From Girardia tigrina (taxonomy: Eukaryota), in NCBI GenBank assembly GCA_001938485.1, contig MQRK01244381.1, positions 38,689 to 102,688 of the forward strand: a stretch of 64,000 bases of DNA. Reading direction: 5' to 3'. A model generated the notes under the pieces. It was not told the DNA's origin, did no database searches, and saw only the letters and a program-made list of their open reading frames with translations. This document shows, in pieces, positions 2,150 through 61,462 of this stretch. Each line of letters begins with the position of its first letter. Positions within the stretch are counted from its first letter, which is position 1. The position numbers and the translations under genes were made by a program.

Positions 2150-2990
2150 AATCTTACCAAGCTTGAAATGGCTGCCCTTTAATCAGCATTGTCAAAACTC
2201 CATATTCTCCATCATTTTCTATGACATCTTTCCACTTAGAAACGAAATTTTTTATACCTTGCTTATAAAAATTCTGATATTTAGAATCAAAAAACTCTTG
2301 TAAACCGTTTTTTACACCATCCAGTAAACCATTATTTTCCACATAGATAATGTTGCATCAATCTGAATAAATGAAAATCAGATGGTGCAATGTCTGAACT
2401 ATAGGGTGGATGGGGTAGAATTTCCCACCCATACTCCTAGATTTTGCTGCGAGTGTTCTTTGCAACGTACAGCCATGTATTGTCTTGCTGCTATTCTTAT
2501 TTGCTATTACCGGAAGTTTAATAGAGATTTGTTCTTACAAACTTGCCAATTGAGCACAATAAATATCCGAGGTAATTGTTTCACCAGGTTTCAGCAGTTC
2601 AAAGTAAATAATCCCACCACACGCATAACAGAAAGTTTTTCTATGAATGTTGGATTTTGGAGTTGACGATGAAGCTTGACCACGTGATAACCATTCCCTG
2701 CATTTTTTTAGGATTATCATACATTACACACTTTTCGTCGCCATTGACTATTCTTTCAAGAAAAGGGTCATTGCTATGTCTGGAAAGCAATGAAGAGCAG
2801 ATTGCTAACCGCTTAACTTTATGTTGTTCAGTAAGTTGGTGTGGTACCCACACTTTTTTTTCCTTTTCGATATTTATAGAGAAAGCAATACCACAAATGC
2901 TCTTCCTCCACAATTTTCTTTGCCATTTCAGTATAACTTTAGATAATTTTACGGTTCTTGAAAAAATTAAAGACGAGATACTAAACAAAC
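2150..2990 (-). mobile_element. Decayed mariner transposase
   Basis: WVPHQL, IVNGDEKC, YFELLKPGET and KQGIKNFVSKW fragments with frameshifts. Confidence 0.8.
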
Positions 2991-3287
2991 AAAAATGTAT
3001 AAAACAGAAAATGTGCTTCTAAAAGTGAGTGATCTGCAGCTAGTTACATTCAGTAGACAAAAATCTGATATCCAATATGATATTACCTTAATTGTTTAAC
3101 TGACAGGACAACTATATAAATAATTCAAAGAAATCTTTATCGAACTGACAGTCCAGAAATTATAATTAACACTAAAAGAAAAACAAATCTCATGAATGAA
3201 TATTTAACAATTTAAAGATCAAAGTCGTTCGTGATAATTTTTATGTCTAATTCCTTTCATAAATACTTTTTATTTAAGTAATTTAAC

Positions 3288-4777: not shown

Positions 4778-5138
4778 TTAATACAATTTTAATAGATACA
4801 TTAATTTTAAAAGGTATTTAAGGAATTACATTTATTAAAGTGTTATTGGGTAATAATGGCAAAAATATTTTAATTAAAAATTTTAAGTATTGAAATAACC
4901 TTACTTTGTCCATTCTGAATGTTAATTGATGGGTTGTAGTGTCTTATTAGTAGAGATTCAAAAAACTGTCGTTCGTAATGTGAATCAAATCCCTTTTGTA
5001 GAACAGAAAACTCATCTTTTGAAATAGATGAGGTTCTATCTATACACCATAACCATTGATCAAGAAACTTACTCAATCGACTCATTTGCGAGTGCTCGCT
5101 AATTCGGGTTTTGAGATGACGATTTGTCTCTCCGATGT

Positions 5139-5607
5139 GGGCCTCCCATCTCTGTAATGGTATTGAGCCTAAGGCTCTTTAGAGGGTCCACCCANNNNNN
5201 NNNNNNNNNNNNNNNNNNNNNNNNNNNNNNNNNNNNNNNNNNNNNNNNNNNNNNNNNNNNNNNNNNNNNNNNNNNNNNNNNNNNNNNNNNNNNNNNNNNN
5301 NNNNNNNNNNNNNNNNNNNNNNNNNNNNNNNNNNNNNNNNNNNNNNNNNNNNNNNNNNNNNNNNNNNNNNNNNNNNNNNNNNNNNNNNNNNNNNNNNNNN
5401 NNNNGCTCTTCCTCGTTCTCTTCTTCCAAGTTTTCTTCTCTCTGGGCGTTGGATGTTGGCACTTCTTGATGATTCTTCTGAATATGAATCCTTAGGAAAC
5501 CAGCGGCCTTGTATTCCCTCGGAGAGTGTTGACATTGATATTTTCCTTTCTTCTGACGTGGCTGGGCTTTCTTCTCTCTTTGTTTTCGCGGAATTGGGCC
5601 TGCTCCA
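5139..5607 (-). mobile_element. Inserted unit A: probable 5'-truncated LINE 3' end with a degenerate C2H2 zinc finger
   Basis: Minus frame KGKYQCQHSPREYKAAGFLRIHIQKNH, then an acidic tail; bounded by 12-bp direct repeats; contains an N gap. Confidence 0.55.
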
Positions 5608-5619
5608 TCTCTCCGATGT

Positions 5620-6028
5620 GCACCTCAACTCCTTTCGAGTATTAAGCCTGAGGCTGGGACGCTGATGGTTTTCAACAGGTACTCCCCCAATGTTGGGCTA
5701 AAGCGTACCTTTGTTCCGCCTGTCCGAAGATGCAACGACGTCATTACGACACCCTTCACCGGGATTGATTCATCCCAGATCATNNNNNNNNNNNNNNNNN
5801 NNNNNNNNNNNNNNNNNNNNNNNNNNNNNNNNNNNNNNNNNNNNNNNNNNNNNNNNNNNNNNNNNNNNNNNNNNNNNNNNNNNNNNNNTACGATACATTG
5901 CCGGCTGTTTCCGCAATGAAAGGCTAGCTTTCGGGCACTTTAGCCTAGAGACGGAATCAAACCCTTCTTCTAGTTTCTCAGGGATACTACGTAGAAGTAT
6001 GCCCACTGGCCGCACAGATGATCCCTGA
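5620..6028 (-). mobile_element. Inserted unit B: structured non-coding element, possibly a tRNA-derived SINE
   Basis: A-box-like CGGCCAGTGG and B-box-like GGGTTTGATTCC 38 nt apart near its 5' end, many hairpins, 3' module shared with unit A, bounded by 12-bp direct repeats. Confidence 0.5.
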
Positions 6029-6499
6029 TCTCTCCGATGTACGAGTTTTGACACCCATGACAATCAAATTTATATACCAGATTAGCTTGCAAACCACAAA
6101 CTGTTTTTGATTTATTTGAGAGGAAATTTTGAACTTTGGATGTGACAGAGACTACTTTAAAACTACTTGTTGTTCTACAAATACTCTTCTTAAACGCTCT
6201 AAATCCTTCAGAATATAGTATTTTACTGATTTGTTTGTATTCTTCAGTTAAAGAATTTCAAATTACCTGGTTATTTGATTTTCTGATTAACCAAATATTT
6301 TTTCATCAAATAACTGGTTAGTTGAATTTTTTTGTCTTCTGATAACTTCATTACCTTTTCGTGGTATTAAATGAAAAATATATAATGAAAGAATATTATT
6401 AGCATATTTAAAGGATATTAATTAAAAAGATCATTATAAATATTTATTTACTCGTAAAAAATAATGTTTTAAAAAACAAGTCCATTTAAAGTTTCTTCA

Positions 6500-8494: not shown

Positions 8495-11400
8495 GTAAAT
8501 AAATTTACCTAATAAATAATAATGTTTTTCGTTTATTTAATTATTTTTTTAACGATTTATCTAACTTCACTAATTATATTTAAGCTCCTCAGCAAGTACT
8601 TTCTCCCAAAATATTCAATAAAACGGATTATTCTGTCACTCTTAGGTTAAATAGGACGGAGGAAAGATTTGGAAGAATTGACAATTATCATTTACTGATC
8701 GTTCCTTATAAATCAAAAGCTAATACGATTTTCAAGGAATATGATAAATCGTCGAACGATTTCAGTCTTATTGAGTTATCCGCTAATAAAAAGAAGAACT
8801 CAAATGTTCAACCATTTATAGCTTTCACTAAAACCACGGAAGAATTATTTGATAAAAACTCGTTTTCTGATTATACAATTGATTCCAAATTGAAAAAGGA
8901 AGATAAAAATTTATTACACGATGGAAACTTCTACCGCTCATCTCTAAGAGCTTGTACTCAAGTGAGTTATAAACATTATTTATTAATTTTATTATTTAAT
9001 ATACCAATTAGTAAAAAATTGTATTGATATTAAAAGTACTTGACAAACTTATATCTTTGATGCCTTTGATGAAAATAATACATCCATATATGAGCTCTTT
9101 AACTTATGCTATAATCACACCGATGTTTTCGAGTCTCTTAATGATTATCAACCGAACTCACATCATTCAATCTACTAGAAAATCCCTTTTCGAGTAAATT
9201 TAACTCAGGCTATTAGATTTCTTATAATAGATTTTTAATAATGCTAAATTATAAGCACACTATACAGTAGCTCTGATGGAGAACCTTTTGAGCTCGGTAT
9301 GCCAGAATTCGAAAAATCGAAGCATGATTTTCGTGGAGTGTCATACATCACAAAATTTAAGACTAAAAATTAAAAATTATGTTATATTTTTTAAGTAATT
9401 TATTTGTTTAATGCTTTTTTTCACTAACAAAACATTGTTTTGTTCAAAATTAATTAATATATTGGATTAATTCGAATTACGATTGATGAAAAAATTTACA
9501 ATTAATTAATTAAAATTCGTCATTTGGCTATTTTCAGATAAAGAACTTGGCGAAATAATAATATTATCATAACCAACTCTGGCTGTTATAAGAGACAAAC
9601 ATTCGAATAATGAAATTTCTTATCTTTAAAGATGCGTGTCACCAAAAATGAGCTCGCGTGTCATAGGTTTGCCATCACTACAGTATGTGGTAAAGTCAAT
9701 TGCATGAAATGATAGTTTATCTAGAAAATGACGTTGCCTTGCTAGAACCTGAACATCACAGTCAATGATATCATTATATGATTAGGACGATAAATCTTGT
9801 TTTTAATCAAAAGAACATATTTATTTTCTACAACAGTTCATTCAATATCCTGCAAAGATATATTGGTTGGCTGTATTGTGACAATTTTTAACTTACTGAG
9901 TTTAAATCACCTTTTACGGCGTAAGGAATGAAACATTATAAATATTTCTGCAAAATAGTGCTCCAGCTTATACTACTTTAACAAGAAGAGCTTTCCTGGA
10001 TAAGAAAATTTGAGCTGCAGCAATGGGTTTCCCGTAACTTGGATTTTACGTCATCAGACCATGATTAAGGAGGAATTGTACAACCAGATTTTTCAATTCA
10101 ACTGAAAATGTACCACATAATAAAACTGTTTATAAAGAGATTCGGAATGATAAATGTTTCGTGAAAAAAACTATTGTATATCATTGACTCATTTTTCCAT
10201 TCTTTTTATTAGCTCACTTTCTATATATATATATATATATATAAATTTGATGACAATTGACGAAGAAATTATAAATTACACTAGGGGTGGTTGCCATATA
10301 AAAGTTATGAATTAGATGTCTAAAATCGAAGACAACGTTTATTTAAAATAACACAATACATGTAATTTAGAAACCTATTTTTGAAGTCTTTCTACTCAAT
10401 CGATTTTCTTCAAAATTTGCACACTTATTCATTCTCGATGACAATAAATGATTATGTTAAAATTTGATAGTAAAAAAAACTTCTTAATATCCAAAAATGA
10501 GAAAAAAACGGAAAATTCGAAGTTCCCGAAAAATAAGTAGGTTACATTGATTTTTATTGATTTTTTAATTAAAATTTTTTAAATCTTAAATTTTTAAATT
10601 TTAAAAACTTTGTTGGCAAAGTTGAGTTTTATCTGCATAAAGAATGGATATAAAAATTTTAATTTTTGATTTACTAATTGTAACTCATCTTTTATAGGAT
10701 GTCACTCTGAACAATGTTCCAAAATTTTTAATTGATTGTATATTTTTGCAATTAGGGATATGCACTTTACTTTATAATTTTTCAATGAGTTTTTTATGAT
10801 CTTCAATATTACCAGCTCTATTCTCACAGTTTCTGGACAAGTCTTTTAAGAGGACGGCTAGTCTTTCTAATGCAATCTACATCATATTTCATACATTGTA
10901 AGAATGTCCTAAAGCAGGGGAAGTAGTTTAATAGTTAAATTATTGCATGTTATTTCTACTTTAGAACTTGTGATAAGATTCTATATTTTAATTTATTAAT
11001 TGCTCCCTAAATTATTATATACTCTCTATAACGTGTCGAAAATATTAATCAGGAATTTATCGAGAATTTTGGATTTTTATGACATTAAATAATATTAAAT
11101 TTTAAAATATTTTTTAAAAACTTAAAAGAATTTCGAAAAAACAATTGTATTTGACCAATTAATATATAATTACAGTAGATTAAATTTTTTAAAGAGAACA
11201 TTTTTGAGACTTGAAAAAATGTTCTCTTTAATCGATACTTTTTTATAATGATAATTTTTAAAAAATATAAATTTTGAGCCAAAAAGTTCTTTTTAACCGA
11301 TTTTGTTTTCGTTACGCAAGTTCTCTTTATTATTTACCAATTAAAAAAATGGACTCTAAAAGGTTCCTATATTTTTATTCCCTTGAAGATTTTGATACTA

Positions 11401-17400: not shown

Positions 17401-20400
17401 TTTATTATTTTTTTTCTTATCAAGTTTCTCCAAAAACTTATTAACCCTGACCATTTATCAAGCTTTTCAATTTCCTCTACAACAAAATATTACTTTGTTT
17501 TGATGCAAATCAACCTTCATAGCAATCAAAAATGTTTCTAATTTCGTTGATCGTTGTTTTTTTCCAGCCATATTCTCATACAACTATCATTTTTATACCA
17601 TCATTTAAAATGGGGTACGAAATCGATCGCATTTATGAACAGATAATAATAGCAAAGAATTAGTACACCGATCTAAAAAATTCTTTATTTTTCATTTTCC
17701 CATAACAAATAGCCCTGTTAACCATACTTCCTGCTCGCACTTTTAGAAGGTTTTATTAAAACAAAAGTTTAGAATTTATTTTACAACTTTTTAAATATAA
17801 TTTTTAACGATTCAATCTTAAGAACCTCACTCATTATCAAAGTTTTTTACAGAAATTACGTGAAAACTTTATGGACAATCTTAAATGTAGATATGATTTT
17901 TACGAAATATGGTTTTAAATTGTTTTTTTTAATTCAAAACACTTTCAGACTGAAGAAGGTCAATCCCATTGTACAACCAGTCCATGGTCAGAGATGTTCT
18001 TCATTTTTTTTAATCAACCTGAAGGGCCTGTTAGTCAAACTAGAAAAATAGAAAAATCTACTACAAAAGCAAGATTTAATGAACAAGGAATAATAACCTT
18101 ATCAATTACCTTATCCGGCATCATACTAGCCTTAGTGGGTATTGTAATCGGTTGTATTGTCCATAAAAGAAAAGCATCAAATAAAAAATGGGAGAATCCT
18201 GGTCGATCAAGTGCACCGGAAATACTGCAAGATGCACAAATGACACCCTTAGTTGACATCAATGTTCCTAAATTAGATCAAGAAATTCATATGTTAAGAA
18301 CTGATCAAAATTATGCATTTGATTCCAATAATGATGTGATAAATTTCAAAGGATATATGATTAACAATACCATATTAAAAAATCATTTTGACTCTCCAAT
18401 TCAGTTGAAATCTAAACCCTTTTTAAATAATCCAGATGCTGCTCCAGATATTGTGAATGTTTGCGATGGATTCAATTTCTATAACCACGATATACCTCAA
18501 CTTTCATTAAATATGTCATCAAAATACGGTAATTTTTATTTTTATCTAACAAAGTATCATATAAGTTTCGAAACAAAAGATTTATGCAAAAATAATAATA
18601 TTAATTTTTAAAAACATTTTTTTGATTTTATTAAAATAATAATAATAATAATATATATGCCGTTTATTTTGAGTCTTAATTCCAATGGCCAATTATTTTC
18701 CGTTGTCAGTGGTTGTCTATATAACTTCAAGTTCGCAAATACCTTACACTTAAACTATGGAACACTGCATAATATGTTCCTTTCCCTGGAAGAAAGGAAT
18801 TTATGATCACGAATTGCGTATAATTTTCTCAGAGCGAACATGTGTGAAAAGTGATGCCAGTGCCTTCAAGGGACCCGCGACATTCATGCGGAAATTGGTG
18901 CATGATTTCTGCATCATTTCATGACAGAGGATGAAATATCCCTATCCTTCTATATCCAAAAATATAGGACATCATTAAAAGAATGGAAACTCTAGGAAGG
19001 AGGGAGCTCTCGGAAGTTAAGGAGGGCATTTTTTCAGCTGAATAGATTATAATTATAAACGGTTACACAGCCAACAAAATCAATGACAAAGATTAAAGCC
19101 CGACGATCAGATAAGGTTCTTTTTGCATAACAATGCCTCCGTGCAAAGATCCACTATGGCTCATGCTGCTGTTCAGTGAATCCTCCCTTCTGCTCAGAAG
19201 ATTTCTTCATGTTCTGTCCTCCCCCTGAAGAAATATCTAAAAGGAAAATGATTTGCTGAAAAAGAGAATGTGATGCAAACATCGACCTCATTTCTTATCG
19301 AAAGCTCACTAACTGATTAAAAAAACCTTTTCCGATTTAGTCGAATGTTGGACTATGTGCTTTGAGAATGATGGAGTTAACGTTAAAAAAAAGCTTGTTC
19401 TCTTATTCTATCTACGTCATGCTTAAGAAATACACGCATTTTGTCTACGGAATTTTCGACTTCACCACGTAGAAATTTGTGAAACAAAATGAAAAAAAGC
19501 TGTTAAAAGTTTTTTCTATGTTATATGTATTCTCAAGGTATTGTTATCATCTTACCATAGTGAGTTCTGCAAAGTGAGTTCTTCCATAACAAATATGGCC
19601 TTTTTGTGCAGATTTTCTTGGTAATTTACAAGATAATGCAGAAAAAAGAAAATAATTTCTAGCGAAATATACTTTACTAATTGCCACTTATTTCTTTTCA
19701 AAATTTATTAGACATTTAAGACAATGGTAAACTTTACAGACAATATTTAAAGAGTTGACCTCTAGTTTACTGTTCAATGTAATCAATGAATTGTTCATTT
19801 TTTGATAAAGATGAAAAGGGAAATGTTTTGGATTCATGATTCTCTCTTTCTTTTCTTTTGAATTAGAATCAAAATTGAGATCATTATCTGTTTTAAAAAA
19901 ATATTTTTTTCCTTTTCCTTATTATATATCTATTGGATAATAATTAAATTCGTTTAAATATTAATTATTTTTGTGATAATAATTATATTTTTGAAAAATA
20001 TCTTTAAAGATTTATAAGAAATAAAATGTTGAGTGTTCAACAGTCGTTGTAACTTCCATATCAAATAATCTGAATTTAATAAACAATATTTTTGCACAGT
20101 TTCTTACCAGAAACTAGCAGCTTTGTCTGTATATGTATGTATATATGTATATATTTATCACATCTCAATAACTGCTAGACGCTTTCAAAACTCTAGAAAC
20201 TATATTTTTTGGATAGGTCTTGTTAATCCTTATATGGACCTGTATATTAAACCAAGGTCACTCAAGGGCAAACCAGATGTAAAAATTGCTAAATATAAAT
20301 ATCGATATCATTTATAATTATTAAAAATAGATTGTGTATAAAAATTAATTTGCACGCTTTCTAATTTTTAAAATTTTATAATTAAACGTTAAATTTTATT

Positions 20401-23400
20401 TTTAAAAATGTTGTATACACATATATATATATATATATATATATATNNNNNNNNNNNNNNNNNNNNNNNNNNNNNNNNNNNNNNNNNNNNNNNNNNATAT
20501 ATATATATATATATATAGTATTTCCAGTATCATTTAAGATTTTTCAATAAAATTAAAAGCTTTTATTGTTATTAAAATAAATGATGAATAAAATAAATCA
20601 ATACAGAAAAATCATTTTAATCTTTTACGCCATAAATTTTTTCATATTAACTGCAATGGATAACCAAATATAGCCTGAAGAAACTCAAAATACTACCAAT
20701 GCAAGAAGAACAAAGAAGAGAATTAGCAATGAAGTTAGACAACTAGTTATTGAGAAAATAAACTCCGGAGAAGATACGAAAACTAAAATAGCACGAGATC
20801 TCAGACTTAATTACAAAACCGTGGTTTCAATAGATAGGGTTTACAAACAAACAGGAAGAATCTTGAAGTTAGAAACGAAAAACAATCACGTTTGAAAAAT
20901 TACTCAAGAAATCAGCTTTTTTATCGAAAATTTAATTGAAAGAAATAATACGTGGTGCGCTCAATAAGTAGTGAGTCTAACATAAAAATAATAATCCGAT
21001 TCTAATGAAATTTATTTTTCATAACAAGCAAGTTATAAAGGTATAATTTCTCAAAGGATTCTCCATTCACACCAACACATTTTTTCTAGCGCACAACAAG
21101 GTCCAGAAAGGTTTTTTCGAAGAGTATCGGTGGCTGTTGAGCAAGAAATTTGAGACTGCTCCTTCAAGTCTTCTTTCGTAACAAAATTTTGACCCTTGAG
21201 AGCTCGCTTGGTGGTTGAAGAGATGATAATCGGATGGCGTCAGATCCGGGCTGTATGGAGGGTGTGAGAGCAGGGTGAGGCCACAACCCTCAATTGATGA
21301 CATTGACAGCCCACTTGTGTGGATGGGTGCATTGTCATGCAAATAATATAACTCACAAACTCTGCTCTTCCTTCTTAGCTTTCTGGCCTGTAGCACGAGC
21401 CAGGAGTAGTATTTACTGTTGATACGAACACCAGTTTCCGCAAAATCAGCGAGGATCATTCCATTTGAATCCCAAAAAGTAGTGAGCATGAGAGCCTTTT
21501 TGTGAGAGGTTGATGATCGCATCTTCTTCGAACACCTTTCCCCTGGCAGCTTCTACTCTTGAAACTCACGTCTTGATTCTGGGACATAAAGGGCAAGTGG
21601 TGTTTCATCCATTGTCATAATATTCTGTAAGAAGCGGTCTCCAATACGTTCATAGATGTTTAAGTTTTCCTGGCAGCACATCAATCGCCGATCCTTCATA
21701 TCTGCAGTTAAAAACCGTGGCACGAAGCGTGAACACGATTTTCTAATTCCAGTTTCCACAAGCAGTGATTGTATCGTACCTGTGCTGACATTTAATCGCA
21801 TTGTCGGTGGTGATTTGTCGCTCACATTGCACGATTTTCTTGAGTTTTTTCGCTATTTCGCCAATTTCACGTGACCTACCTGACTTTTCTTCATCAAAAC
21901 ATACGTTCGACCATCTCGAATATGGTTGAACCATCGTTTGACAGTAGATATGGATGGACTCTCTTCGCCATAAACAGAACTAAGCTCCACGAATATTTCT
22001 TCCAAGCTTTTCCCTTTCATTAACAAGAAACAAATAACACTTCGATATTAAATAAATTAAACAAATAACACTTACAATGACATTTTCGAATTTAAGCGCT
22101 CTCTAAACTAAACACAAATAATAGATTAAAACAAATATCAGAAATATTACCTTAATAACTTGCTTGTTATGAAAAAAAATTATTGAAATCAGAATATTAT
22201 TTCTATGTTAGGCTCCCTACTTATTGAGCGCACCACGTACAATAACAAAATAACAGATGAAATTTGGAATATATTTGAAGTTAGTTTTTCAGTTGAAACG
22301 ATTAGGAAACATCTTAATAAATTAAAAATTGCTCTTAAAAGAAGCAGTCTTGTTCTTAGTTAGAGTAAATGACGAAGAAAGACTTGTGTTGAGAAAAGTA
22401 TATGCTGTAAATTTCCTTACCAAATTTTCAGTCGATGATAGAAAAAAATATTTTTATTGATGAAAGTGGATTTAACCTGCATCTTAGAAGAAATTATGGA
22501 AGAAGTTTATCAGGTAAAAGGGTTTACAATGTTGTTCCTGCAATTAAAGGAAGGAATATAACACTTTTAATGGCCTTAAATAGTGAACGTATTATTTATT
22601 ATCAAATTATTCAAGGTAGTTGTAGTAGTGCAATCTTTTCTGAATTTTTAATCGAACTTAATCAAAAATTGGTTGATACTTACCAAATAACTGATGGAAA
22701 ATTGATTATGGATAACACTCGGCCACACACATCAGAAAACACGAGAATAAATATTGCGCAATGAACCAAAATTTATATCACCGTATGAATTTATGCTGAA
22801 TCCAATTGAATTTAGTTTCAGCAAAATAAAAAATTCCATTAGAACAGTAATGAATCAAAATTTAATTGAAGATTTTGGAGAAGTTATTGTAAATGGTACT
22901 GGATCTGTGAAACTGGATGGTTGTAATTGATGGTATAGGTTAATTAAGAGAAACAGTGCTCTTGCAATGCACAAACACAGGTTTGAATAAAATTGTGTTG
23001 CTTGTTTGAAATATGTTTTATATATTTTATTACCTATAAAAACACTTGAAATTTTTTATTTGAAATAAATTTGTTAATGTCTTAATTTATAATTAAAAAG
23101 TCTTAAATGATATTGGAAATGCTATATTAAACTATTCTATTTTAAAATGTATAATATTTTGCTATTTCATATAAGATTTATTTTGAATTTTTAAGGTATT
23201 ATAATTTTTTAAAACTTATTTTGAATACTTTCTTTTATCTTTAATTTTATAAATTCATGAATCTACTTCTTTTTTATTTTTTATTTAATTTGTAAAACTA
23301 TTAATTCTGTTTGAACATTTTCAACATCTTCTCCACAGTTTCATCTCAAAAGTATTTAATTTATTATTTTAAAATCTCTTTTTAAATAATATTCACTTAT

Positions 23401-36500: not shown

Positions 36501-39500
36501 TTCTGAAAGTTGCCCTCTGACCCGTTTCTAGAGATACCTAGAAAATGAGAAGGTGCTAGGTTTTATTGTAGAATTCAGGAAATTAAGTTTTTCATTTTGC
36601 AATGTGTCTTACAACGAAGGATATAACTGATACTAATACAAATTATGATATGATTCACCCGTTATCGTTTCTCTCAAAAGAAATACCGAAATTAAGGAAT
36701 TGAATTTAAATGACAATGCTGCATGAAAGTTTTTAGTGCTTAAAAAGTGGGTTGCTATAACGGTTAGTAAAACCATTTATATGAAAGAGGGCGTTATTTC
36801 TAAAAAAAATTTATCTTTTTTTTCATTACTTTGAATGTTTTGATACATCTAACTCACAAATTTCATATGTATATCATTTTTTTTCATCTTTCAAATGTTG
36901 TGTTAGGGTTTGTTGAAAAGTGTTATACTTCTTCTTTTCAAAATGCCAACAACTGATGACTTGCTTATGAAAGTCTTGCAAGTAATCTGGAGATGAGTAG
37001 AATATGGCTGATTTTTATGGAAGCTAACAGTGCAATGATTGTTACATTATCTGTTGAGGTTTTAGAGCGTATTAGAGGTTCCATATCTTAGATATTGTCA
37101 GTTAATTTAAATTTAGAAATTAAACGCAATATGGTTGAGTGAAGGTAGGGTTACGTCCTCTGTTCATATTTTTAATTCAACAACAGCTTTCCAAGCAGCA
37201 TTATAATCACGAAATGTACCAGACAAAACCCCAAACTCAAACTTCCTTTTTAAAATTAATCTGCCATGTGCATTCATTATATTAAATGTTTCTAAAATGT
37301 AATAGCTAAAATATTTATAACATTTTTCTCAATAGTAAGAATTTAATTGTAAAATGGGTGGGTTAAAGTGAATAACTACGAATAAATATTAGTAAGAAAA
37401 CATTAATAACTTAATGAGTGCATACATTTATACCCAAATGGCTAATAATCTGAAAATCAGGACATGACTCCTTACATATAATGTTACCACAAAAATAATA
37501 TTACTTGATTCACATCACTTTTCTACGCTGTCCAGCACACTTTACTTAAGTCAAATATAATTATTTTACCTATGTCAGCCCGTATATATTAATCAAACAT
37601 GAGATACGAAATACGTTTTTTATTTATCCTTTAAAATGATTTTTTAATTATTAGGCGTTACAAGTTCTATGAAAAGTTTATAGAATATTATGGGTCTTTC
37701 TTTAAGTATAATAATTTTGCATTTTTTAACAACAGTTTTATAAATAACTTGATGAATGTTGATGTATGATATTATTCAGGTGTCTTCATTGCAGTTGATA
37801 GTCAAATGGAAAGAATTAGACATGAAAAATCTGTTAATTTATATGAAGAAATTAAAAATATGCGCAAAAACAGAAATTATATGGTTCAAACGGAAGCTCA
37901 ATATGGATTTATTTATGATGTATTGCTAGAATGGAGTCTGGATAATACATCAGATATTAATCCTGATATGCTCATTAGTCATATAAAAACCAAATCACAG
38001 ATAGTAGAATGTCAAACACTAACAGGTTTTGAAGTGGAATTCCAAAGGCTCAACCTTCAGTCATCAAATATTACTGCCAATATGTCTAAAATCTACGGAA
38101 GTTCAACCGTTAGTAATAATTCTTTTATGAGACACATATTAAGATGATAATTTATTTATATTTATATACAATCGGTTAATATTTATTTATTTATAAAAAT
38201 TATGTACAAATAAACGTAATTAAAATTTTAAATCTCAAATTGTTTACCAAAGATTATAAATTATATGCCAGCAAAACTCAAAGTCTTAGCAGATACAGAA
38301 AGACTTCTGTTAAAGAAGTATTTTTCTCACAAATATGTTTTAAAATAGAACAAACAAAAATCTTGTAGTTAGGTTGTTACTGTTCGAGTCAAATCAATGA
38401 ACCGAATTGATTATTCAAAGAAAAATTCAAAATTTTAATTTAATTTGTTATGTAAAAAGACCAACATTATCGTAAAAAAAACATTTATTTGAGAAAATTA
38501 ATTAATTTGAATTGAAAAGAATATTATAATTTATTCAGTTGTTTAAACAAATCAATTTTGAAGGTCGTTAATAATAAAGATTGGAAAATAAAAGATTTTG
38601 ATCGAATATCAAATTGATTTTTTGTCTATTTCCTTTTAATTTAAAAATCTTCGGATCTAAATAAAATAATTCAAAAAATGAGTGTAAACAATTACAAGTC
38701 AACAGTTACAAGGAATTGAACTTTCGAATAAAAAGGTATTGAATCTACATCCTTCGAAAAAGTGATTGACTTTTTGGAAAAATTGTTTCACTAATAAATT
38801 ATTTTGGTTCCGATGTAAGACAAAAGCATCCAGATATGATGATAGAGTTTCGATTATTCTTTTGTAATTGTTCGAACGAAAAACTTTCGAATTCATTGTA
38901 CTTGGACCATGCGGTTTTCAGATAACTAACTTGCAATTCATACTGCAAAATCATTTATTATTATGAATGAAAAAAGTGAATAAAAATAATAATTACAAAT
39001 ACAGTATCATCCAGCTGTAATAAAAATCGGATATTGTAAAATTTTTTCGTGGTAGTGCAGAAATGCTTCTACTTTTAATCGGTTAATATAAAATTGGTTA
39101 TAATAAAAAAATCGGTACTTAGAAAGAAAGATTTGCTACATAAGAAAATCATGTTTATATAAAACATGTGGTATAGGATTATGGTTACCGCCTGTAAAGA
39201 ACGTAAACTAGAGAACAAAATTTATTAGATAAAATATTGCTCAGGGTTTCATCACCAATTAAACTTTGAAATCCTCTTTTATATTAAGGCAATATTTTAT
39301 AATATGCCCCGGGGTCAGCTGATGCAATTGAAATTGACATGACATCTGAAAGCAACGGAATTTGAACTCTAGTGATGTCATGAGATGTCACATCATTGAG
39401 CTCAAAGTTCAATATTATTGAATGTGGTGAGGAATGACATCACCATACCGCTATTTATGATTGTTTTTTTATAAAAGGCAGCGGCATGGAAACGGCTAAT

Positions 39501-47658: not shown

Positions 47659-49376
47659 ATCTGTGTGTGTATCCATTTAATTTAAAAACATATTTTTGAA
47701 GGTCTTTTACTCAATTAATTTTCTCCAAACTTTGCATATTTACTCATTTTCAATGACAATAAATAATTATGTGAACATTTGACCAAAAAAACTTTTTAAG
47801 GTCTCAAAATTGAGAGAAAACAGTCCCATCAGAGTTCCTGAACAATATTAATATAAAAAAAAATCTAGTTATAAATAATAAGTAGTTTATATTACTCAAA
47901 AAAAATAAAATGAAAAATAAATAAAGTCCACTAAACCGATTTAAAGTAAATCAAAAAAATATTTTTAATATGCATGCTTTATGCGGGCAGAACTCTGTTT
48001 GAACAACATAATTTTCTAATTTTTTTTTATTTTTTTGAAAATATTTTTTAATTAAAACTTTGTTGGCAAAGTAGAGTTTTGTCTGCATGAAGAATGGATA
48101 TAAAAAATTTAATCTCTGTAAACTAACGTACCGAAATTTAGGATTACATAATTTGAAACTTCAGGCCAAAAGGAGTTAAAAAATAACGTAATATTTAGAA
48201 AAAAGATCAATATTGTTAAGACCTGAAATTATTAAATAAAGTATAATGACGATTTTTTTCTCATCCTCCCTCTGTTTGAACAAACGCTCAAATTAAGACT
48301 TTGAATGTTTCGAAAAAGAATATGACCTACCTAAATAATGTAAAATAAAAAATAAAAATTATTTATAACAAGCATAAATTTTTAGTATAATAATATATGT
48401 ATTATTATTTTTATTATTATTACCTTTATTATTTACCCTAAACGCATTTCACCTTCATTTCTTGGAGACCCATAATTAAGCGGGCGCTCCTGGACTTGTT
48501 GTATTAAGGCGTTTTGACGTCTCAATTGATTAAAAAATAGTTTATAAATAAATATATTGTTATAAACTAATTTTCTTAAAGCTTTTTATAAATCGATTAT
48601 TCGGAATATTCTTCATCATCAACAATTATATTAATGTAATAATGTTACTTTTATTTTTAAAAGGAACAAATCTTTTATTTATTTATTTAATTTCAGATTT
48701 TATTGGATAATAATGGCAAAAAAGTTTTAAAAATTTTAATTATTAATGGGTCGTAAGTTACAATGCTCACTAATCCGGATTTTGAGATGATGATTTGTTT
48801 CTCAAATGTTCGAGTTTTTACAACCGTGACGATGAATTTTTAAACCAAATTAGCTTGCAATCCACAAATCGCTTTTGATTTATTCAAGAGGAAGCTTTGA
48901 ATTTTGCATTTATTGAAACAACTTTGACACTACTTATATTCTTGCAAATACTCTTGTTAAATGCTTCTTGATAAATTCCTTCAGAGTCTGGTGTTTTGAT
49001 TATTTGCTTGTGATCTTCAATGTTTTCGTCACTTAGTCCTTTCTTAACCCGTGTTTTTGTACATAATTTGTCTAATGTAATTTTAATGCTGTGATCTATC
49101 TTTTTTTTTGTATACGTGTTATACTTCAAGCGTCTTCTAAGAATATTTAAACTATTAAGAATATTTATTTATTTATTTTGCGGTTTAAAAATTGGAAGAC
49201 AATTTAGAAAGTCTGTGAATGTAGGCCCTTTATCATGCACTCTATATATTTTTCCTCACAAAAGATCTGTAAAGATCTGTGTCTATTGTCCGTCTGCATA
49301 ATTCATTTCGAAATTTCCCATTCATCCTAGTATATACGTATTATATATAAAAGTGTTTATTAATTATTTAAATATA

Positions 49377-49419
<43 letters not shown>

Positions 49420-52400
49420 NNNNNNNNNNNNNNNNNNNNNNNNNNNNNNNNNNNNNNNNNNNNNNNNNNTATATATATATATATAAAATAAAAGAAAATT
49501 TACTTTTCCTGTTAAAAATCCAAAAAACGAAAATTGTGTTTGATCCGGGTATGGCATTATCATTTAAATAAATAAATTCCCATATAATGAAAAAATATAG
49601 AAAGGCGCAAATGCACCGTGATAAATAATAAATTGATTTATTAATATCAAAAAATTGAACAATTTATAATTAAATTTTTTTATTTTTTTAAAATAATAAA
49701 AATTAAAAATTATTTTTTTTTAAAAATAATATTAACAGTTCTGATATAAATATCCTTTTCATTTTGGTATAAAGTAAGAGAAGATTATTATAAAGAAAAA
49801 CTTGTGTTTTTTAGAACTCCTTGGTTGTAAAAATATTTTTGTAACCAAGTCGATAAAGAATTGTTTTTTGAATAAAAGTTATTGATCAAGCTTTGAATAT
49901 GTATTGTTGTTTGAACTCACTTAATTTGGTTAATATAAAATATCTCTAATAAGATAATAATTTATCTTGTGGGATAATTGAAAGAAAGCTTTTGTAAGAC
50001 ATAAATTGAAAGGGTCTCTAGTGAGATTTACTTAGCATCAAACTTCAAGAGAGGCATTGACAATTTTAATATAAAAGCTGTAAGAACTTTTTGAAGATTT
50101 TTCGTAAGAAACAAAAATATGATTTTTTAATAATATCCAACAATATTTATTGCTGAACTTGTTGACCAGCTGATTCCATTCTTGTAGAAAACATCGCATC
50201 GGGTACCCATCAGAACAAACTGAATATTACTCTAATAATTATAAAATTAATTTATGTAACAACTAATAAAACAATTTAAACAAAAGTTTTAATTGAAAGC
50301 AATAGTAAAAAAATTATTTACGCTCTGAAGTATGAGCAAAACACGTAGGATTTAGAATTAAATTTGTTTGTACAATTGTTAATTAAGATATGCAACTAGG
50401 TAAACCCGAATTATTTTTACATCAACCAAAGAAATTTTATAATAAGTACTTTTTACGAAACTAAAGATTATCTATTTAAGGATTTGAGTCTACCATATTG
50501 GCCAGTTCAAAAATCCATTCGTTATCAGTTTTTTGTTGTTGACCCTATGGTCGAGTACAACATGTCCAATTATATAATGCGGGAATTCAAAGTAACCGAT
50601 GCCAGAGATGGAGAGTATCGAACCATTCGGCAATTTCATTACTCCAAATGGCAAAATAATATATGCCCTTGTGATGCTCATTCATTTTTGGAATTCATTC
50701 ATCAGGTTCAAATAACAAAAGATAATTTTGGTCTTGGCAATCCTATACTTGTACATTGCAGGTACCATTGTTTTTGCTATTTAGTTTTGAAAAATTAAAG
50801 ATATATCGTAATATTTAGGGCACGGAATTTAATGATTATTAGTAATAATAATAATTATTAATTATAATATTAATAATAATATTAATTATTATTGTGAGGA
50901 ATATTTTAAATTTGGTATGTTGAAATTGGTTTGTTTAATTTGGTATGTTGAGTTTAGTATTTGGAAATGTGTTTCTCCCACCCAGATAGAAAATTGTTAT
51001 TTTGGATGTTCACGATAATTATTCGAGTATAATTTGTTTTTTAAAGTACAGCATAAGATATTTGAAAAACTTTAAAAATATTAAATCGTTTCAAATTTTC
51101 ATATTATAAATTTAAATAAAGTTAATAGCTTTTAATTAAGTTTTAAATTAAATAAATATTCTTTCTTTACATAAAATCATTTTTACATTCTAATTGCATT
51201 GAAAAGAAAAGTTCGAAAAGCCATGTTGGTGTTCTTAATAATTATTAATAATAGTAATAATCATCATTGATAACAGAATGGGTGGTGCAGGGGTGTGACT
51301 CCGGCGGATTGGTTACGGTGGCGACTCTATTGGCAAAGGGGAAGAACAAAATAATATCTCACCCGGAAAGAGAGGAAATAAAATTTAGAGGAAATAAAAT
51401 AAAGACATTTTTTTGATTTTTAAGGTCATTAAATTCCGTGCCCTAGTAATATTAATATTGAATTAATTGTATTTTTTCAAGAATAAAATCTGCTATCAAT
51501 TTGTTTTATGAAATTTTAATTTCTGTTTTGATGATATCCGAAATCTTTACACCCACAATTCATCCCCAGTAAAATTATTGTTATAATTAATATTCTTATT
51601 ATTGTATAAATCAAGATTTTAAAGTGAAAATTTATTGATCCAAAATTGGTTTCGGATTATGGTTTGCGAATTGCTTTTCAAAATTTAAATTATATGCAAA
51701 AAATAAATTGCAAACAACAATAGATTTATTTTGAGCTCTTTATGGATCTTCAAGACAAAGAAAATCTGCTTGATTTAACTCTCATGCGATCCTCGGGTTA
51801 AATTTCACCCAAAGATGATTTTAAAATTATATAGTTTCTACAATTTCATAACAGAATTTTTAAAAAAGCAGTATTTTTAAGCATTTTAATATGAATTCAT
51901 ATTATTTTCGAAAATAACTTATATTACACTGAGTATTTCCTGAGGACCTCAGTTGTGATGTCTATTAAATGTCGTATTAGGGTCAAAAGCTAAAATTTGA
52001 ATAATATAGGTTAAAAGACAATGTTTTATTGTAAGTTTTAATAATGATCTAACATAAAGTTTGAAATTTTATAGGATTTTTAAACTGATACTCAGAAAAA
52101 TGTAATTTGTCAACAAAATAGAAATTATTTCGTCTTTTCATAATTTGCCTATCATGACTTTATTAAGTCGAAATCGACACTATGAACATATATAAATAAC
52201 TTTTATCATAAATAAGTTTCAAGATGGCTCTAAAAATCGATATCGAAATTAAAATGTTATTATTTGAAAAGATACTTTCCTAAAATTTAATTCTAACGTA
52301 CTATAATGTAATAAAAAGGAGAGAAATTCAAAATGGGAAAATTATTTTGCCATTATCGCTTAGTATAAACATAATACATAAAACATAAATGTTGTGATTC

Positions 52401-55400
52401 GGACTACAACAGAAAAAAATAACTGTTAGAAAAGTAATTAATAATTGAAAAAAAACTAATAAATAATGTTTTTTTGTTTAAATAATCAACTAAATGTACG
52501 ATTATTGATAAAACGAAATCCGGATGAAAATCGTCTTTTAATAACCAAAGTCATCCATTTAAAAATATATTTTACGACAATATATTTCGACGGATCTACC
52601 GTCATGTTCAGGTCACTAATCAATAATCAATTCACCTGTATATAAATACAAAAATGATGAGTGTGTAATCGGTTACATGAAATCATGCTAATCAAAAATT
52701 CTCAATAAGCTGGTTGAGACTGCCGATTGAACATTGATTTTAGGGCAACGTGACCTAATTAACAATGCTTCACACGACACTCTCTCCCAATAACTGTCAA
52801 AATGTTTACACAAAATTTTGAAATTATCAAAATTAACATCACATTTACATTTTTTCCTATGTTCTGCAATATTACTCTTACTCTCTTTTTTACCATGTTC
52901 TTGAATTCGTTTACAGAGATGACGGGCAGTCTCTCCAATGTATGTGGCATCGCACCCATTACATTTATATTCATAAACAATATCAGAACGAAGTGTTAAA
53001 GGTGTAATAGATTTATTACTGAACATATTTTGAATTTTATGAGATCGTGATATAATTTTTAAATTTAATTAATTGTTAGTTGCTTTTAACAATGCATTTT
53101 TAAAGTTTTTAAATCCTTCAGAATAAGGTACAATTAAACAATATTTAGGCATATTATTCATATCTAATAATTCTTCGATTTCTTTCTTAGATCCTAAAAT
53201 CTTTGTTATTTTGCTTAAAATTTTTATTTACATAATCTGAAGTATTTTTATTCAAAACATGCTTAAAATATCCAAAATCAAAACTATGAAAATAAGAAAT
53301 ATTAGATAAATAATAGCCATACATTGCTTCAATCTTTGAAAGAAAGTATGTATGATGTTGTATGGCTATTATTTATCTAATATTTCTTATTTTCATAGTT
53401 TTGATTTCGGATATTTTACGCATGTTTTGAATAAAAATACTTCAGATTAAGTAAATAAAAATTTTAAGCAAAATAACAAAGATTTTAAAACAAAGATATA
53501 AAACAAAATATAAATAAGGAGGAACGATGCGTCAAACTTTCAACAACTCTTGTAAATTAATTGTTTTCGCATTTAGTAATTTATATTCTTTCAAGGATCT
53601 ACAATTTTTTTTACTGAATGAGTTTATTAAGACAAATACATGTTTAAATAAATGTTAAGAATGTAACATTTTATTGAAGTTTTGGCTTTTACATTATCAA
53701 ATTAAAGTTTTTAGTATTGGTATTCAAATTTAATAATTATTTCTTTAACACAATGAAGAATCATGTTCCTAGAAGAATGCCCTTCATTAAGTTAAAAATA
53801 CCAAACTAAAATAACAAGAATTTTCAAATTATTTTATACCATGTAATATAAAAATATTTTAAAATAATTTTAATGCTATAATAATAATAAATAGGTTCGG
53901 ACATACTTGACGAATCATTATTGAATTCAAACTCAAGATGAAGATTAGACAATTTAAAATTTTAATTTTAAATAAATTTTAATTTTATTTCAATACCAAT
54001 TTCTGTTTTTTTAAATGAATTTCCGAGGAACATTATTTTTTATTCACAAACCTTTAAAAATAAATATACAGTGAAAGCCGCTTAATAGGACCACCGGTTA
54101 ATAGGACCAGCCGCTTAATAGGACCAAATTCTGTGGGACCGAACCATTCCATATATTTCGAATATTAAAGCAGTCGCTTAATAGGACCAGTAAAAGTCGG
54201 TTAATGGGACCACTCATGAAACTGTTTGACCCTTCAAACAACATGAAAGTCATGAAAAACGTGTTTCTAGCGTAGGTCATACACCCACCCCAATCAACAT
54301 ACACACACACGTAACAAAGAAGCAGGTCTTGACTGAATTTGTATTTACTGTATTTGTTCTTATCTCTTTAGCTGCAGAGAACACCTGCTACATTTGTAGC
54401 ACACACACACGGGACACAGCAAGAGGAAAAGTGTCCTGTAAGCAAGCGTACAGTTAGTGGCGGCCGCTCAATACACTTACCATCCCAGGCACGCGTGTGT
54501 GTGTCGCCTAACTCGACATCAATCTTGCTAGAGCACAATGGGGAGGGTTGCAGACTGGCTGCTGACGAGAGCTGCAGTAAGCTCACACCCTCTTATGAAA
54601 TCGTCACCACCAACTTCTCTCTTGCTGGAAGGACGCGTCTTCTCTTGCTGTGTGGGAGTGTGCTGTGCGCTGAGTGAGAGAGGATAGAGCAGATTAGAGT
54701 GCAAATTGCCGAATTCTAAGTATGCTGTACAGTAAAGTAGTACAGAACTGTATCACCCAATACTGTACATAGTTAAAACGTTTAACTTACTGTTTATACG
54801 AAGAGTGTGTACTTCAGAGCTCTCAAACTGTTTAGACCATCGCAATCGATTTGCATGCAGTTTTAAAACGATGGCAACATTTAAAAACGCGCAAAATGTT
54901 GTAGCAACTCGAAAAGTGTACTTTGTCAAAAAATAACACCACTTCGCATAATGGGACCAGTCGGTTAATAGGACCAGTTGGGCTTAGGACAAATGTGGTC
55001 CTATTAAGCGGCTTACACTCTATTGTTTAGTATAAATATGAAAAAGTTAAAATGTTAATTTAAATTTCATAATTTTAAAATTTTACAATTGAAAATTATA
55101 TCGTTCAAAAATTTTCGTGAGTACAAAGTCGGAAGAATTATTATATTTATATGCATATATAATGACTATATCTACATTTATTAAAAATATTTTTATTGTA
55201 TTATTTCTCTAAAAACAAAAAAATATTTTTTAAAATAGTGTTAAGAATATATATTCAACATTCAACGATGCTACTTTTATTTGTAAGTATTTAAAATAAA
55301 TATAAATAGTTAAAGTTATTATTATTCCACATTATTTTAAATAAATTTTTATACATTTTCGAATTAATTAATTTTGACATGAAAAGTTTTAATTTATTTA

Positions 55401-58778: not shown

Positions 58779-61462
58779 TTTTCGATCAACTTTCCAACAA
58801 TTGCAATCAACTTTCCAAAATTAATATTATTAAATTAAAAAAACGTAAAGTTAAAAATTTTATATTAAGAGATTGTTTTAAATTTGAAATAAAGAGATGT
58901 TATTGATAGATTCTAATATATAAGAGTAATGCCAATAGGATGATTTAATTATATTAAGTTGGTCGAAAAATAATGGCGGTTTTTGAGCTTTATACTTTGT
59001 TTATCTACTTTGATATGTATATAATTTTAAATGTTAGTGTTAGATATTATTTGAAATCGTATGCCTAGCTGTATATTCCTATAGTCATTATTAACATATT
59101 GCTGTTATTTTGTAGAATATTTACGGTGCTAAATTAATAATAGAAAAAAATTAAAATTCGAGCAATTTTCTTGTACGAATTTAAACTGGGTCGTAAAGCA
59201 GCAGAAACGGCTCGCAATATCAATAAAGCGTNNNNNNNNNNNNNNNNNNNNNNNNNNNNNNNNNNNNNNNNNNNNNNNNNNNNNNNNNNNNNNNNNNNNN
59301 NNNNNNNNNNNNNNNNNNNNNNNNNNNNNNNNNNNNNNNNNNNNNNNNNNNNNNNNNNNNNNNNNNNNNNNNNNNNNNNNNNNNNNNNNNNNNNNNNNNN
59401 NNNNNNNNNNNNNNNNNNNNNNNNNNNNNNNNNNNNNNNNNNNNNNNNNNNNNNNNNNNNNNNNNNNNNNNNNNNNNNNNNNNNNNNNNNNNNNNNNNNN
59501 NNNNNNNNNNNNNNNNNNNNNNNNNNNNNNNNNNNNNNNNNNNNNNNNNNNNNNNNNNNNNNNNNNNNNNNNNNNNNNNNNNNNNNNNNNNNNNNNNNNN
59601 NNNNNNNNNNNNNNNNNNNNNNNNNNNNNNNNNNNNNNNNNNNNNNNNNNNNNNNNNNNNNNNNNNNNNNNNNNNNNNNNNNNNNNNNNNNNNNNNNNNN
59701 NNNNNNNNNNNNNNNNNNNNNNNNNNNNNNNNNNNNNNNNNNNNNNNNNNNNNNNNNNNNNNNNNNNNNNNNNNNNNNNNNNNNNNNNNNNNNNNNNNNN
59801 NNNNNNNNNNNNNNNNNNNNNNNNNNNNNNNNNNNNNNNNNNNNNNNNNNNNNNNNNNNNNNNNNNNNNNNNNNNNNNNNNNNNNNNNNNNATCCTTCTT
59901 CATGATAACGCTAGACCTCATATTTCAAAAGTGACTCTTCAAAAGCTTAATGAGTTGGGCTATGAAACCCTGCTTCATCCACCATATTCACTAGACCTCT
60001 CGCCAACGGAATTCTACTTTTTCAGGCATTTGTACAACCTCCTACGTGATAAACCTTTCAAAAACCAAAATGATGCTCAAAATGCCTTCCAAGAATTCGT
60101 CGCTTCGAGAACCGATGCATTTTATGCTGATGGAATAAAACAAATTGTTTTTCGTTGGCAAAATGTATTGATGCCAACGGTTCATACTTTGATTAATAAA
60201 CTTTTGTTTCTGTGAATTTGCACGTCTTTGAAGTTTGTGTCCCAAACCGCCATTATTTTTCGACCAACCTAATATTATATAAAATTAGTTCATAAAAAAA
60301 ATTAAATTAAAAAATAATAATTTATAAGAAAAACAAATCGTTTAAAATAAGCATCTTTATTCAAACATTTCTTCTCTTCTTTCAGACCTTATCACATACC
60401 TCAACATTTTACGATAGTATCCATCACAATCATGAGCATTAATTTCCTCAAATCCACGATCAATCAACATGTTCAATTCACTTTCATTATTAGCTTTTCA
60501 GATGATCACAAAGTTTTTCCATTTCGAAAAACATTTGTCGATAGGATTCAAAAATGGTGAATATGGTGGAAGGTATTCAAATTTAAAATCTTGAATTAAA
60601 GATTCAAGGCCTGAATAATGATGTATTCTGGCATTATCCGTAATAAAAATTGGATCTGCTATTGACATTTCACTACATTTAGTTTTTACAAGACCAAGGG
60701 CTGTTTCGAAGGTTTCTCCATTGTAAGGGGTGTCACTTGTCTTGCAAAAAATCATACCATTTTTGTTTATTGCTGCGAGAAGAGAGACGTTTCTTCTCCG
60801 TACAGCAGAAACATCTATGTACGCGGATGTACCTTTTAATGACATCCCTCTTTGTGGTCGTGTTGCAACGGAAAAACCAACTTCATCGAGAAATATCAAA
60901 TTTTCGGCACTATAACAAACTTACAAATCACGAAATTTTTGCGCGTATTCAAATTTTTTTAATGGTAAGATCGACGTTTCGTGGCGCTGGCAAAATTGTA
61001 ATCTGTTTTAATGTATAGTGAAATTTTCCGAGACAACAGTACTGCATGAAACTGTTGTGTCAAATGTATTCAAAATTTTTTCACGAAGTTTTTTTAACGT
61101 TAATGAACAATTTTCATCAACCCATAGTCTGAGTTGATCCTTCTGTGCGCTACTTAGCTTTTAACGGTTGTCGCCACCAACTTTCTTAGGCATAACACTT
61201 CCAGTTTTTTGTAAATTGTTAATTATTTTTACTACTGACCAGTAGTTATGCTTCAATGCATCTGAAATCGCTTTTGTTGATAGTCCTTGCTGAAATTTTG
61301 CCAAGACTTTCGGGTCTCATTGCAAATTTTGGTGAAATTTCTTTTTATCATTATGATTAAATATAAATTTTAATTTAAAATATTAATAACATTAATATTG
61401 GAAAGTCAATTGCAATAATTGGAAAGTCGATTGCAATAATTTGAAAGTTGATCGAAAAACCC
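58775..61462 (-). mobile_element. Tc1/IS630-like (DDxE) transposon inserted in a (TA)n tract, with a nested mariner
   Basis: TIRs GGGTTTTTCGATCAACTTTC / GAAAGTTGATCGAAAAACCC with internal subrepeats; IFLDEVGF, FITDNARIHH, YLPPYSPFLNPIDKCFSKWK. Confidence 0.88.
58954..60272 (+). mobile_element. Full-length mariner (Hsmar1/cecropia-like TIRs), centre lost in an N gap
   Basis: TA|TTAAGTTGGTCGAAAAATAATGGCGGTTT ... AAACCGCCATTATTTTTCGACCAACCTAA|TA; YEFKLGRKAAETARNIN, LLHDNARPH, HPPYSLDLSPTEF. Confidence 0.9.

Follow-up and report, generated by a model that had tools for sequence, protein, structure and literature searches.

Genes of mobile elements can carry group II introns or inteins in their conserved motifs. 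Among the LINE retroelements, the Tx1 clade has a reverse transcriptase (RT) of the L1 group and two open reading frames (ORFs), and its member Tx1L reportedly inserts into Tx1D; R1 is likewise a two-ORF clade. Most target-specific LINEs are members of the restriction-like endonuclease group, of Tx1 or of R1, and the targets listed for them include transposons (PMC4640811, PMC8869645). Those with an AP endonuclease (APE) are named as the groups R1 and Tx1 (PMC4640811). ORF-less bipartite elements built from the 5' and 3' parts of a LINE are reported for RTE, Ingi, Vingi and R2 only (PMC5786205). Ribozymes of retroelements are treated in PMC4035085 and PMC6765202. The active ribozyme of L1Tc has a C at +1, and a competition of an extended P1 with P1.1 has been described for it (PMC3185411). 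Here, we describe a planarian locus that we take to be a real stack of a truncated, finger-bearing RTE-like LINE and a short ribozyme-headed partner in the endonuclease motif of a Penelope-like element.

The stacked locus and its host element

In the window, i.e. the whole stretch of 64,000 nucleotides of Girardia tigrina DNA that was analyzed, the 12-mer TCTCTCCGATGT is found exactly at 5127, 5608 and 6029 of the plus strand and nowhere else on either strand, as the initial annotation had claimed; 0.002 copies are expected from window composition. With up to two mismatches allowed the window contains seven matches, against a mean of 1.93 in shuffled sequences, and seven were reached in 0 of 100 shuffles. 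The three copies delimit unit A (469 nt, 5139-5607, counting its gap of 210 N) and unit B (409 nt, 5620-6028, counting its gap of 105 N), in agreement with the insert sizes first reported. The junction from B through the 12-mer into A lies inside a single contig of 379 nt (5405-5783) and is contiguous sequence. The GC content is 47-54% in the visible parts of the inserts vs 27% in the flanks. Both insertions seen (2/2) are at the site, and both at this one locus; there are no copies of A or B elsewhere in the window. The 12-bp target site duplication (TSD) is of the size proposed for target-primed insertion and fits the range of RTE elements, which is 7-15 bp and mostly 10-12 bp (PMC6007223). 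The features of the locus are listed in Table 1.

Table 1. Features of the stacked locus, in window coordinates.
Feature	Position	Strand	Remark
Host GIY-YIG endonuclease, downstream of the insertion site to the stop codon	4870-5126	-	88 open codons from 5136; paralog at 48.5-48.8 kb
12-mer, downstream copy	5127-5138	-	target site duplication; codons Y-I-G-E-T
A, 3' end: GGP (probable last ORF codons), then shared 3' module	5139-5194	-	fold; likeness to B
A, assembly gap, 210 N	5195-5404	.	expected: 285-300 nt of ORF including third zinc finger
A, 5' visible part: LINE ORF fragment, zinc finger 2, acidic run	5405-5607	-	P0001 match
12-mer, middle copy	5608-5619	-	between B 3' end and A 5' end
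B, 3' part: body without protein match, then shared 3' module (5655-5620)	5620-5783	-	
B, assembly gap, 105 N	5784-5888	.	
B, 5' end: candidate HDV-like ribozyme fold	5933-6027	-	descriptor scan
B ribozyme, P1	6027-6021/5985-5979	-	7 bp
B ribozyme, P2	6004-5999/5938-5933	-	6 bp
B ribozyme, P3	5998-5996/5988-5986	-	3 bp
B ribozyme, P1.1	5994-5993/5978-5977	-	2 bp
B ribozyme, P4 stem	within 5976-5944	-	
B ribozyme, candidate catalytic C in J4/2	5943	-	
Extra T between 12-mer and P1	6028	-	
12-mer, upstream copy	6029-6040	-	exact match
Host Penelope-like element, upstream of the site (linker, C-x2-C before YIG)	6041-6246	-	degenerate further upstream

The native 12-mer is Penelope coding sequence. 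On the minus strand the frame upstream of the inserts ends in ...KFDCHGCQNSYIGE, with the pattern C-x2-C...YIGE, and it resumes from the last 12-mer as IGETNRHL..., running for 88 codons to a stop, which upholds the claim that a GIY-YIG frame is interrupted at Y-I-G-E-T. A paralog at about 48.5-49.0 kb can be aligned with both flanks, the upstream one being 75% identical to 48800-49019 over 222 nt. This paralog is uninterrupted, as had been said, but it does not carry the exact 12-mer that was ascribed to it, as 3 of the 12 positions differ. The downstream part of the host matches the Pfam GIY-YIG family with an E value of 0.011, under the gathering score. Penelope-type GIY-YIG endonucleases are C-terminal and have two cysteines between GIY and YIG (CCHH) (PMC8557442). 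In the host the C-x2-C before YIG and the first histidine are present; the second histidine is not evident here and is present in the GIY-YIG copy at 52.7 kb. A PLE-type RT gave no Pfam match upstream in the host in three frames read with X at stops, the copy being degenerate, and the label Penelope is a provisional one that is taken from the endonuclease only. The proposal that the inserts inactivate their host is not borne out here: this Penelope copy has many upstream stops and frameshifts, and its decay may have come before or after the insertions. Four other YIG-like sites in the window, all without inserts, lie at 26794, about 48800, 52930 and 61686, with 1, 3, 1 and 2 mismatches to the 12-mer, respectively; the one at 52.9 kb passes the Pfam GIY-YIG cut-off.

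The surroundings contain other coding and mobile sequences. Four plus-strand segments (8584-9027, 17919-18611, 37770-38147 and 50400-50798) are probable exons of a receptor-type tyrosine phosphatase, the last two with Pfam Y_phosphatase matches and the second with a hydrophobic stretch; none of 395 candidates proved to be a homologue of the exon at 17.9 kb. The Penelope copy and both inserts are antisense to this gene. Remnants of mariner-/Tc1-like transposases were recognized by eye at 676-1035, 2641-3018, 21067-21552, 22411-22764, 59144-60215 and 60498-60920, and the transposase at 59-60 kb matches SETMAR and Mos1. At about 54070-55020 there is a GC-rich non-coding element with short subterminal repeat arrays at both ends, which we take to resemble a non-autonomous DNA transposon.

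The two inserted units

Outside a common 3' module, A and B are unrelated, as originally described, but they are not the anonymous inserts they seemed to be: A is coding, and B has a ribozyme-like fold at its start. The visible frame of A is 90% identical to residues 976-1036 of the protein P0001 (61 aligned residues, E 4e-27), a match that covers the end of finger 1 through finger 2 (at 5540-5469), where one finger cysteine is lost (second Cys to Ser). The element is truncated on its 5' side where finger 1 ends, near residue 980 of 1145, and the G-G-P that follows the gap equals the last three residues of P0001 and P0003, a match of three residues only. The truncation and the identical 12-mers on both sides are marks of a non-LTR element. 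Neither A nor B has a poly(A) or microsatellite tail, and both 3' ends abut the 12-mer. With these features A is best described as the last ~550 bases of a 5'-truncated LINE, whose 3' untranslated end would be about 45 nt long. With the minus frame of 5405-5619 as query, three homologues were found among 20 candidates, and a profile search with the A peptide found 7 proteins of 25-33% identity, with the match limited to the finger. The possibility that the finger belongs to the N-terminus of an R2/NeSL-type protein was rejected, because the homologues have it at the C-terminus of an APE-RT protein.

P0001 (1145 aa) and P0003 (1169 aa) share 81% identity; each contains an AP endonuclease, an RT and three C2H2 fingers, with Pfam Exo_endo_phos_2 and RVT_1 above cut-off in both. 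The initial annotation had left the endonuclease of A between the APE and restriction-like types; in its homologues it is an AP endonuclease by Pfam, and N-terminal, and the placement seen in R2, NeSL, R4 and CRE (restriction-like endonuclease after the RT, no APE) was not found. The best match in the PDB is LINE-1 ORF2p, both by sequence and by fold. In an AlphaFold model (mean pLDDT 75, pTM 0.55) the folds are LINE-1-like, and flexible linkers hold three finger-like units that stand apart from one another. The proteins of this lineage are 1080-1230 aa long and gave no match to an RNase H domain. With the longest contigs that encode homologues at 4025 and 4133 nt, an additional ORF1 would hardly fit, and a single ORF is probable.

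The search with P0003 returned 161 matches, 120 of them listed, and the RT tree was built from 119 of these 120 (P0065 was dropped as too short) with FastTree, with local support only, midpoint rooting and no named clade reference. P0001 and P0003 fall in a branch of their own of 17 rows (SH support 99), which holds 16 of the 19 proteins with at least two fingers after the RT among the matches listed. DUF6451, which we take to be a marker of the RTE group, is present in 61 of 120 among the matches listed; in the tree, 59 of the 60 DUF6451 rows are grouped in another branch, which does not include the finger branch, and the deeper position of the latter is unsettled. These DUF6451 neighbors, together with RT and endonuclease motifs that we regard as RTE-like, point to a probable place for the lineage near the RTE group. 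The finger helices are conserved across 16 aligned members, and the APE catalytic motifs and fingers 1 and 2 are conserved across the lineage. Two members carry source labels that assign them to a bacterial assembly; our guess is that they are co-assembled animal DNA. Three APE-RT proteins with two or three C-terminal fingers (P0052, P0068 and P0121) stand outside the main finger branch, a placement from which fingers may have been gained more than once. The C-termini of P0001, P0003 and P0011 have DPVGGLSGG in common, though P0011 is only 52% identical overall, and this common end hints at an RNA-level constraint that overlaps the end of the ORF.

Unit B starts with a candidate HDV-like ribozyme, in which P1, P1.1, P2, P3 and P4 of the nested double pseudoknot are all present. 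The descriptor, written post hoc from the general HDV topology after the fold had been noticed, was passed by 0 of 3000 shuffles of the segment and by two other loci of the window, both A/T-rich. Rfam gave 4 matches around the locus at E values up to 5, all far under the gathering scores, and none window-wide at gathering, so that it missed the ribozyme-like fold; plain folding, which cannot model pseudoknots, found no excess stability (z -0.02). The first base of P1 is a C, and P1 might be lengthened by the extra T in competition with P1.1. B is probably self-cleaving. Weak A-box- and B-box-like motifs at 6012-6002 and 5962-5954 (minus strand) overlap the ribozyme fold. A Pol III promoter in B is not supported, as its A and B boxes have one mismatch each and were equaled by 85 of 2000 shuffles.

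Neither ARAGORN nor Rfam found a tRNA head in B. Of the pair first proposed, a LINE with a dependent short element is supported; a tRNA-derived head is not, the head of B being HDV-ribozyme-like. The visible parts of B match nothing among 128 fetched proteins better than E 0.004, and its 3' part (5620-5783) reached E 0.029 at best in tblastn against the same set. The 164 nt before its 3' end do not encode the C-terminus of the family, whereas the ORF of A reaches to within about 45 nt of the end of A. Two gaps of the assembly can be calibrated: that of A holds 210 N where 285-300 nt are expected (off by 75-90 nt), and one in the mariner gene at 59-60 kb is spanned by 661 nt, compared to an expectation of about 627 by the numbering of SETMAR and Mos1, an approximate figure from two proteins. 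The sizing errors are thus under about 100 nt, and the length of B is probably close to 410 nt. Being short and non-coding, with a LINE-type 3' end, B looks like a SIDE-type or bipartite non-autonomous LINE partner and not a tRNA SINE.

The 3' modules of A and B are identical at 15 of 17 nt, a likeness equaled by 2 of 5000 shuffles, and the module is found nowhere else in the window. In both units it folds into two inner hairpins within a closing stem, with one extra hairpin in B; the folding stability is unremarkable (z -1.4 and 0.44). A twister, pistol or hammerhead ribozyme in the module was considered and dropped; Rfam, which covers these families, found none.

At both 5' junctions the 12-mer is followed by a T (5607 in A, 6028 in B) where the native target has a C. 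Untemplated addition is one reading of this T, for which the agreement of A and B is weak evidence. In A, the last eight bases of the 12-mer and this T read R-R-D, a tripeptide with a single occurrence in the ORF, two residues ahead of the junction (about 0.35% of positions in that frame). On the protein level this suggests microhomology joining at the 5' end of A, with an unexplained loss of 6 nt. The start of B (6016-6021) equals 5114-5119 of the native Penelope element, a run of 6 nt with R-H-L codons at the same offset after the 12-mer, which is also present in the 48.8- and 52.9-kb paralogs. Such a same-offset run was reached in 76 of 20,000 shuffles, or 345 when any of five sites was allowed, and it was noticed post hoc; target mimicry or a target-derived 5' end is possible.

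Proposed targeting of the YIG codons and its alternatives

With one locus only, we put the probability that the insert pair targets the YIG codons of Penelope at roughly 0.6. A single-ORF, RTE-like LINE with three C2H2 fingers would recognize the Y-I-G-E codon site in Penelope-type GIY-YIG genes and insert by target-primed reverse transcription. Judged from the flanks, the first nick of its AP endonuclease would fall on the antisense strand, at the 12-mer's upstream edge, and a second-strand cut 12 nt further on would give the 12-bp duplication. The structured 3' module that is common to A and B would give the LINE protein its grip on the template. Instead of a tail, read-through into the downstream 12-mer could pair with the nicked strand and prime synthesis, by analogy with R1Bm, in which, as in the I factor and R2Ol, priming is said to be helped when the 3' end of the RNA pairs with the nicked target (PMC6007223, citing Anzai 2005). 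Of A only about 550 nt were copied, and this truncated copy may have been joined where the R-R-D codons match the end of the 12-mer. B, a partner of roughly 410 nt with the fold described above, would be freed from a host co-transcript by self-cleavage and would have used the same protein and the same site, in the simplest order as the second insertion, at the retained upstream junction; identical DNA would result from one template jump, from the RNA of A to a B RNA that already had the 12-mer at its end. The three conserved fingers may supply or sharpen DNA recognition, and the multicopy Penelope gene would be a renewable, low-cost target.

Real targeting is favored because of the position of the stack on the YIG motif. 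A random insertion would fall within 6 nt of a YIG-like site on the sense strand with a chance of ~5e-4 (five sites in 62,581 nt), which rises somewhat if any conserved motif of any element is counted. In addition, the 12-mer is abutted by two 3' ends that differ from each other, A corresponds to the C-terminus of a protein with APE, RT and three C2H2 fingers, the tail is missing, unlike in the tabulated RTE families, B has the same-offset run, a post hoc observation, and the target-specific R1 elements and their SIDEs are built in the same way (PMC3414825). Against targeting, the four other YIG-like sites are empty, each being 1-3 of 12 positions off, and the locus was chosen from a scan for oddness, which inflates coincidences. 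The RTE elements that serve as tools insert randomly (PMC13708176), R1 and Tx1 are the APE groups named as target-specific (PMC4640811), and ingi/L1Tc elements form stacks with their short partners, likewise with a 12-bp TSD, at a site specificity that is only relative (PMC3820030). The earlier statement that two successive insertions and a template jump both imply sequence-directed targeting was thus too strong. The C-terminal C2H2 fingers of L1Tc are cited as a nucleic acid chaperone domain (PMC4035085), and fingers therefore need not mean targeting.

The trypanosome precedent, with the same TSD length, a 5' HDV ribozyme and C-terminal C2H2 fingers, suggests a loose specificity for the pair as well, in which a short motif upstream of the nick is recognized genome-wide, A landed in YIG by chance and B followed via the retained motif. 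The order of B upstream of A is as predicted by upstream recognition, RTE elements with a weak upstream signature are described (PMC6007223), and the selection bias of the scan would work in the same direction. We nevertheless consider this unlikely, although it deserves to be taken seriously: the first insertion must land on a conserved catalytic motif (~5e-4 for the YIG sites in the window), the upstream flank has an A run vs the T run of the RTE or ingi6 signatures (PMC6007223, PMC3820030), and the missing tail and the 6-nt match at the same offset are left unexplained.

Two other explanations concern the structure of the units, and the targeting reading could hold under the former of them. 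Gaps interrupt both units, as they do collapsed repeats, and the autonomous element, too, should have a 5' ribozyme (PMC5786205), so that B might be a second full-length LINE with its ORF in an under-sized gap, or the middle contig might be misplaced, with the B 5' and A 3' parts forming one long element. The two gaps of known content, sized within about 35 and 75-90 nt, and the 164 nt before the 3' end of B make this quite improbable. Even a misplaced middle contig leaves two integrations at the motif, because the junction of B, 12-mer and A is contiguous. That the middle 12-mer is decayed finger-1 helix sequence of A, which would make A and B one chimeric element with a chance internal match, seems barely credible. 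The end of the 12-mer and its T do read R-R-D, the tripeptide mentioned above that the ORF contains once, and the last bases of B read K-E-L, which is helix-like; this resemblance of the B 3' end to finger 1 was rejected as chance-level, since 126 of 3000 and 221 of 3000 shuffles did as well. A stretch of about 40 nt would also have to contain several indels, next to 180 nt that have none, and the 3' module of B is complete and in register with that of A. The wider form of the targeting reading is that of an undescribed RTE-like, three-finger LINE lineage with a specificity independent of R1 and Tx1, which homes with its ribozyme-headed partner to the YIG codons of Penelope, and other members of which may use the finger module for fixed targets of their own; on this proposal we are evenly divided.

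Significance and comparison with known systems

If targeting is real, it would be a third origin of target specificity in APE LINEs besides R1 and Tx1 (PMC4640811), and a compact, single-ORF RTE-like case would show how specificity is gained, with the role of the appended C2H2 fingers being directly testable. The catalytic motif of a protein-coding gene is an unusual target, because third codon positions drift, and its use would mean direct conflict or dependence between two classes of retroelements. RTE proteins, which are random integrators, are in development for gene insertion (PMC13708176), and a site-specific, finger-modular relative would be of practical interest. In the literature searched, mostly outside subscription journals and outside Repbase, we found no RTE-type LINE with Penelope as its target and no RTE lineage with three fingers; specificity aside, the combination of a tail-less, three-finger lineage with a partner headed by a ribozyme was not found there either. 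A target-specific LINE with a dependent element is of a known kind, and the novelty would lie in its clade and its target.

Group II introns and inteins, which likewise occupy a conserved catalytic motif in mobile-element genes, are removed by splicing and leave the host gene intact, whereas the inserts A and B disrupt it. The Tx1 clade resembles this locus in that an APE LINE uses multicopy sequence, including another transposon, as a safe site (PMC4640811, PMC8869645); no Tx1 element with a Penelope target was found in the literature searched. RTE LINEs appear to be the nearest protein neighbors and have, as here, TSDs of 10-12 bp and, as is probable here, 5' ribozymes and a single APE-RT ORF (PMC5786205, PMC6007223), but they end in microsatellite-like tails and have a weak insertion preference (PMC6007223, Table 2), while there is no tail here. 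Compared to the described RTEs, the finger branch is without DUF6451 and has two or three C2H2 fingers added. The trypanosome pairs ingi/RIME and L1Tc/NARTc share with the locus a 12-bp TSD and tandem autonomous and non-autonomous copies, and ingi/L1Tc also the 5' HDV-like ribozyme (here a candidate, on B only) and the C-terminal C2H2 fingers (PMC3820030, PMC3185411, PMC4035085). The ingi/L1Tc ribozyme cleaves before the C at +1, and the predicted fold of B likewise begins with C. The ingi/L1Tc elements have an RNase H, proteins of 1500-1760 aa and poly(dA) tails; the proteins of the present lineage have 1080-1230 aa, and neither RNase H nor tail was found.

In anatomy, the locus most closely matches R1 with the R2/R1 SIDEs in tandem at the 28S site. 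In the 28S rDNA of Drosophila an APE LINE is accompanied by a short element with an HDV-like head and 3' segments of the LINE, as appears to be the case here, and the two stand in tandem at one site, separated by a TSD of 14 bp, compared to 12 bp at this locus (PMC3414825). The R1 and SIDE elements target rDNA, whereas the site here is a protein-coding motif of another retroelement, and the LINE probably combines a single ORF with an RTE-like RT.
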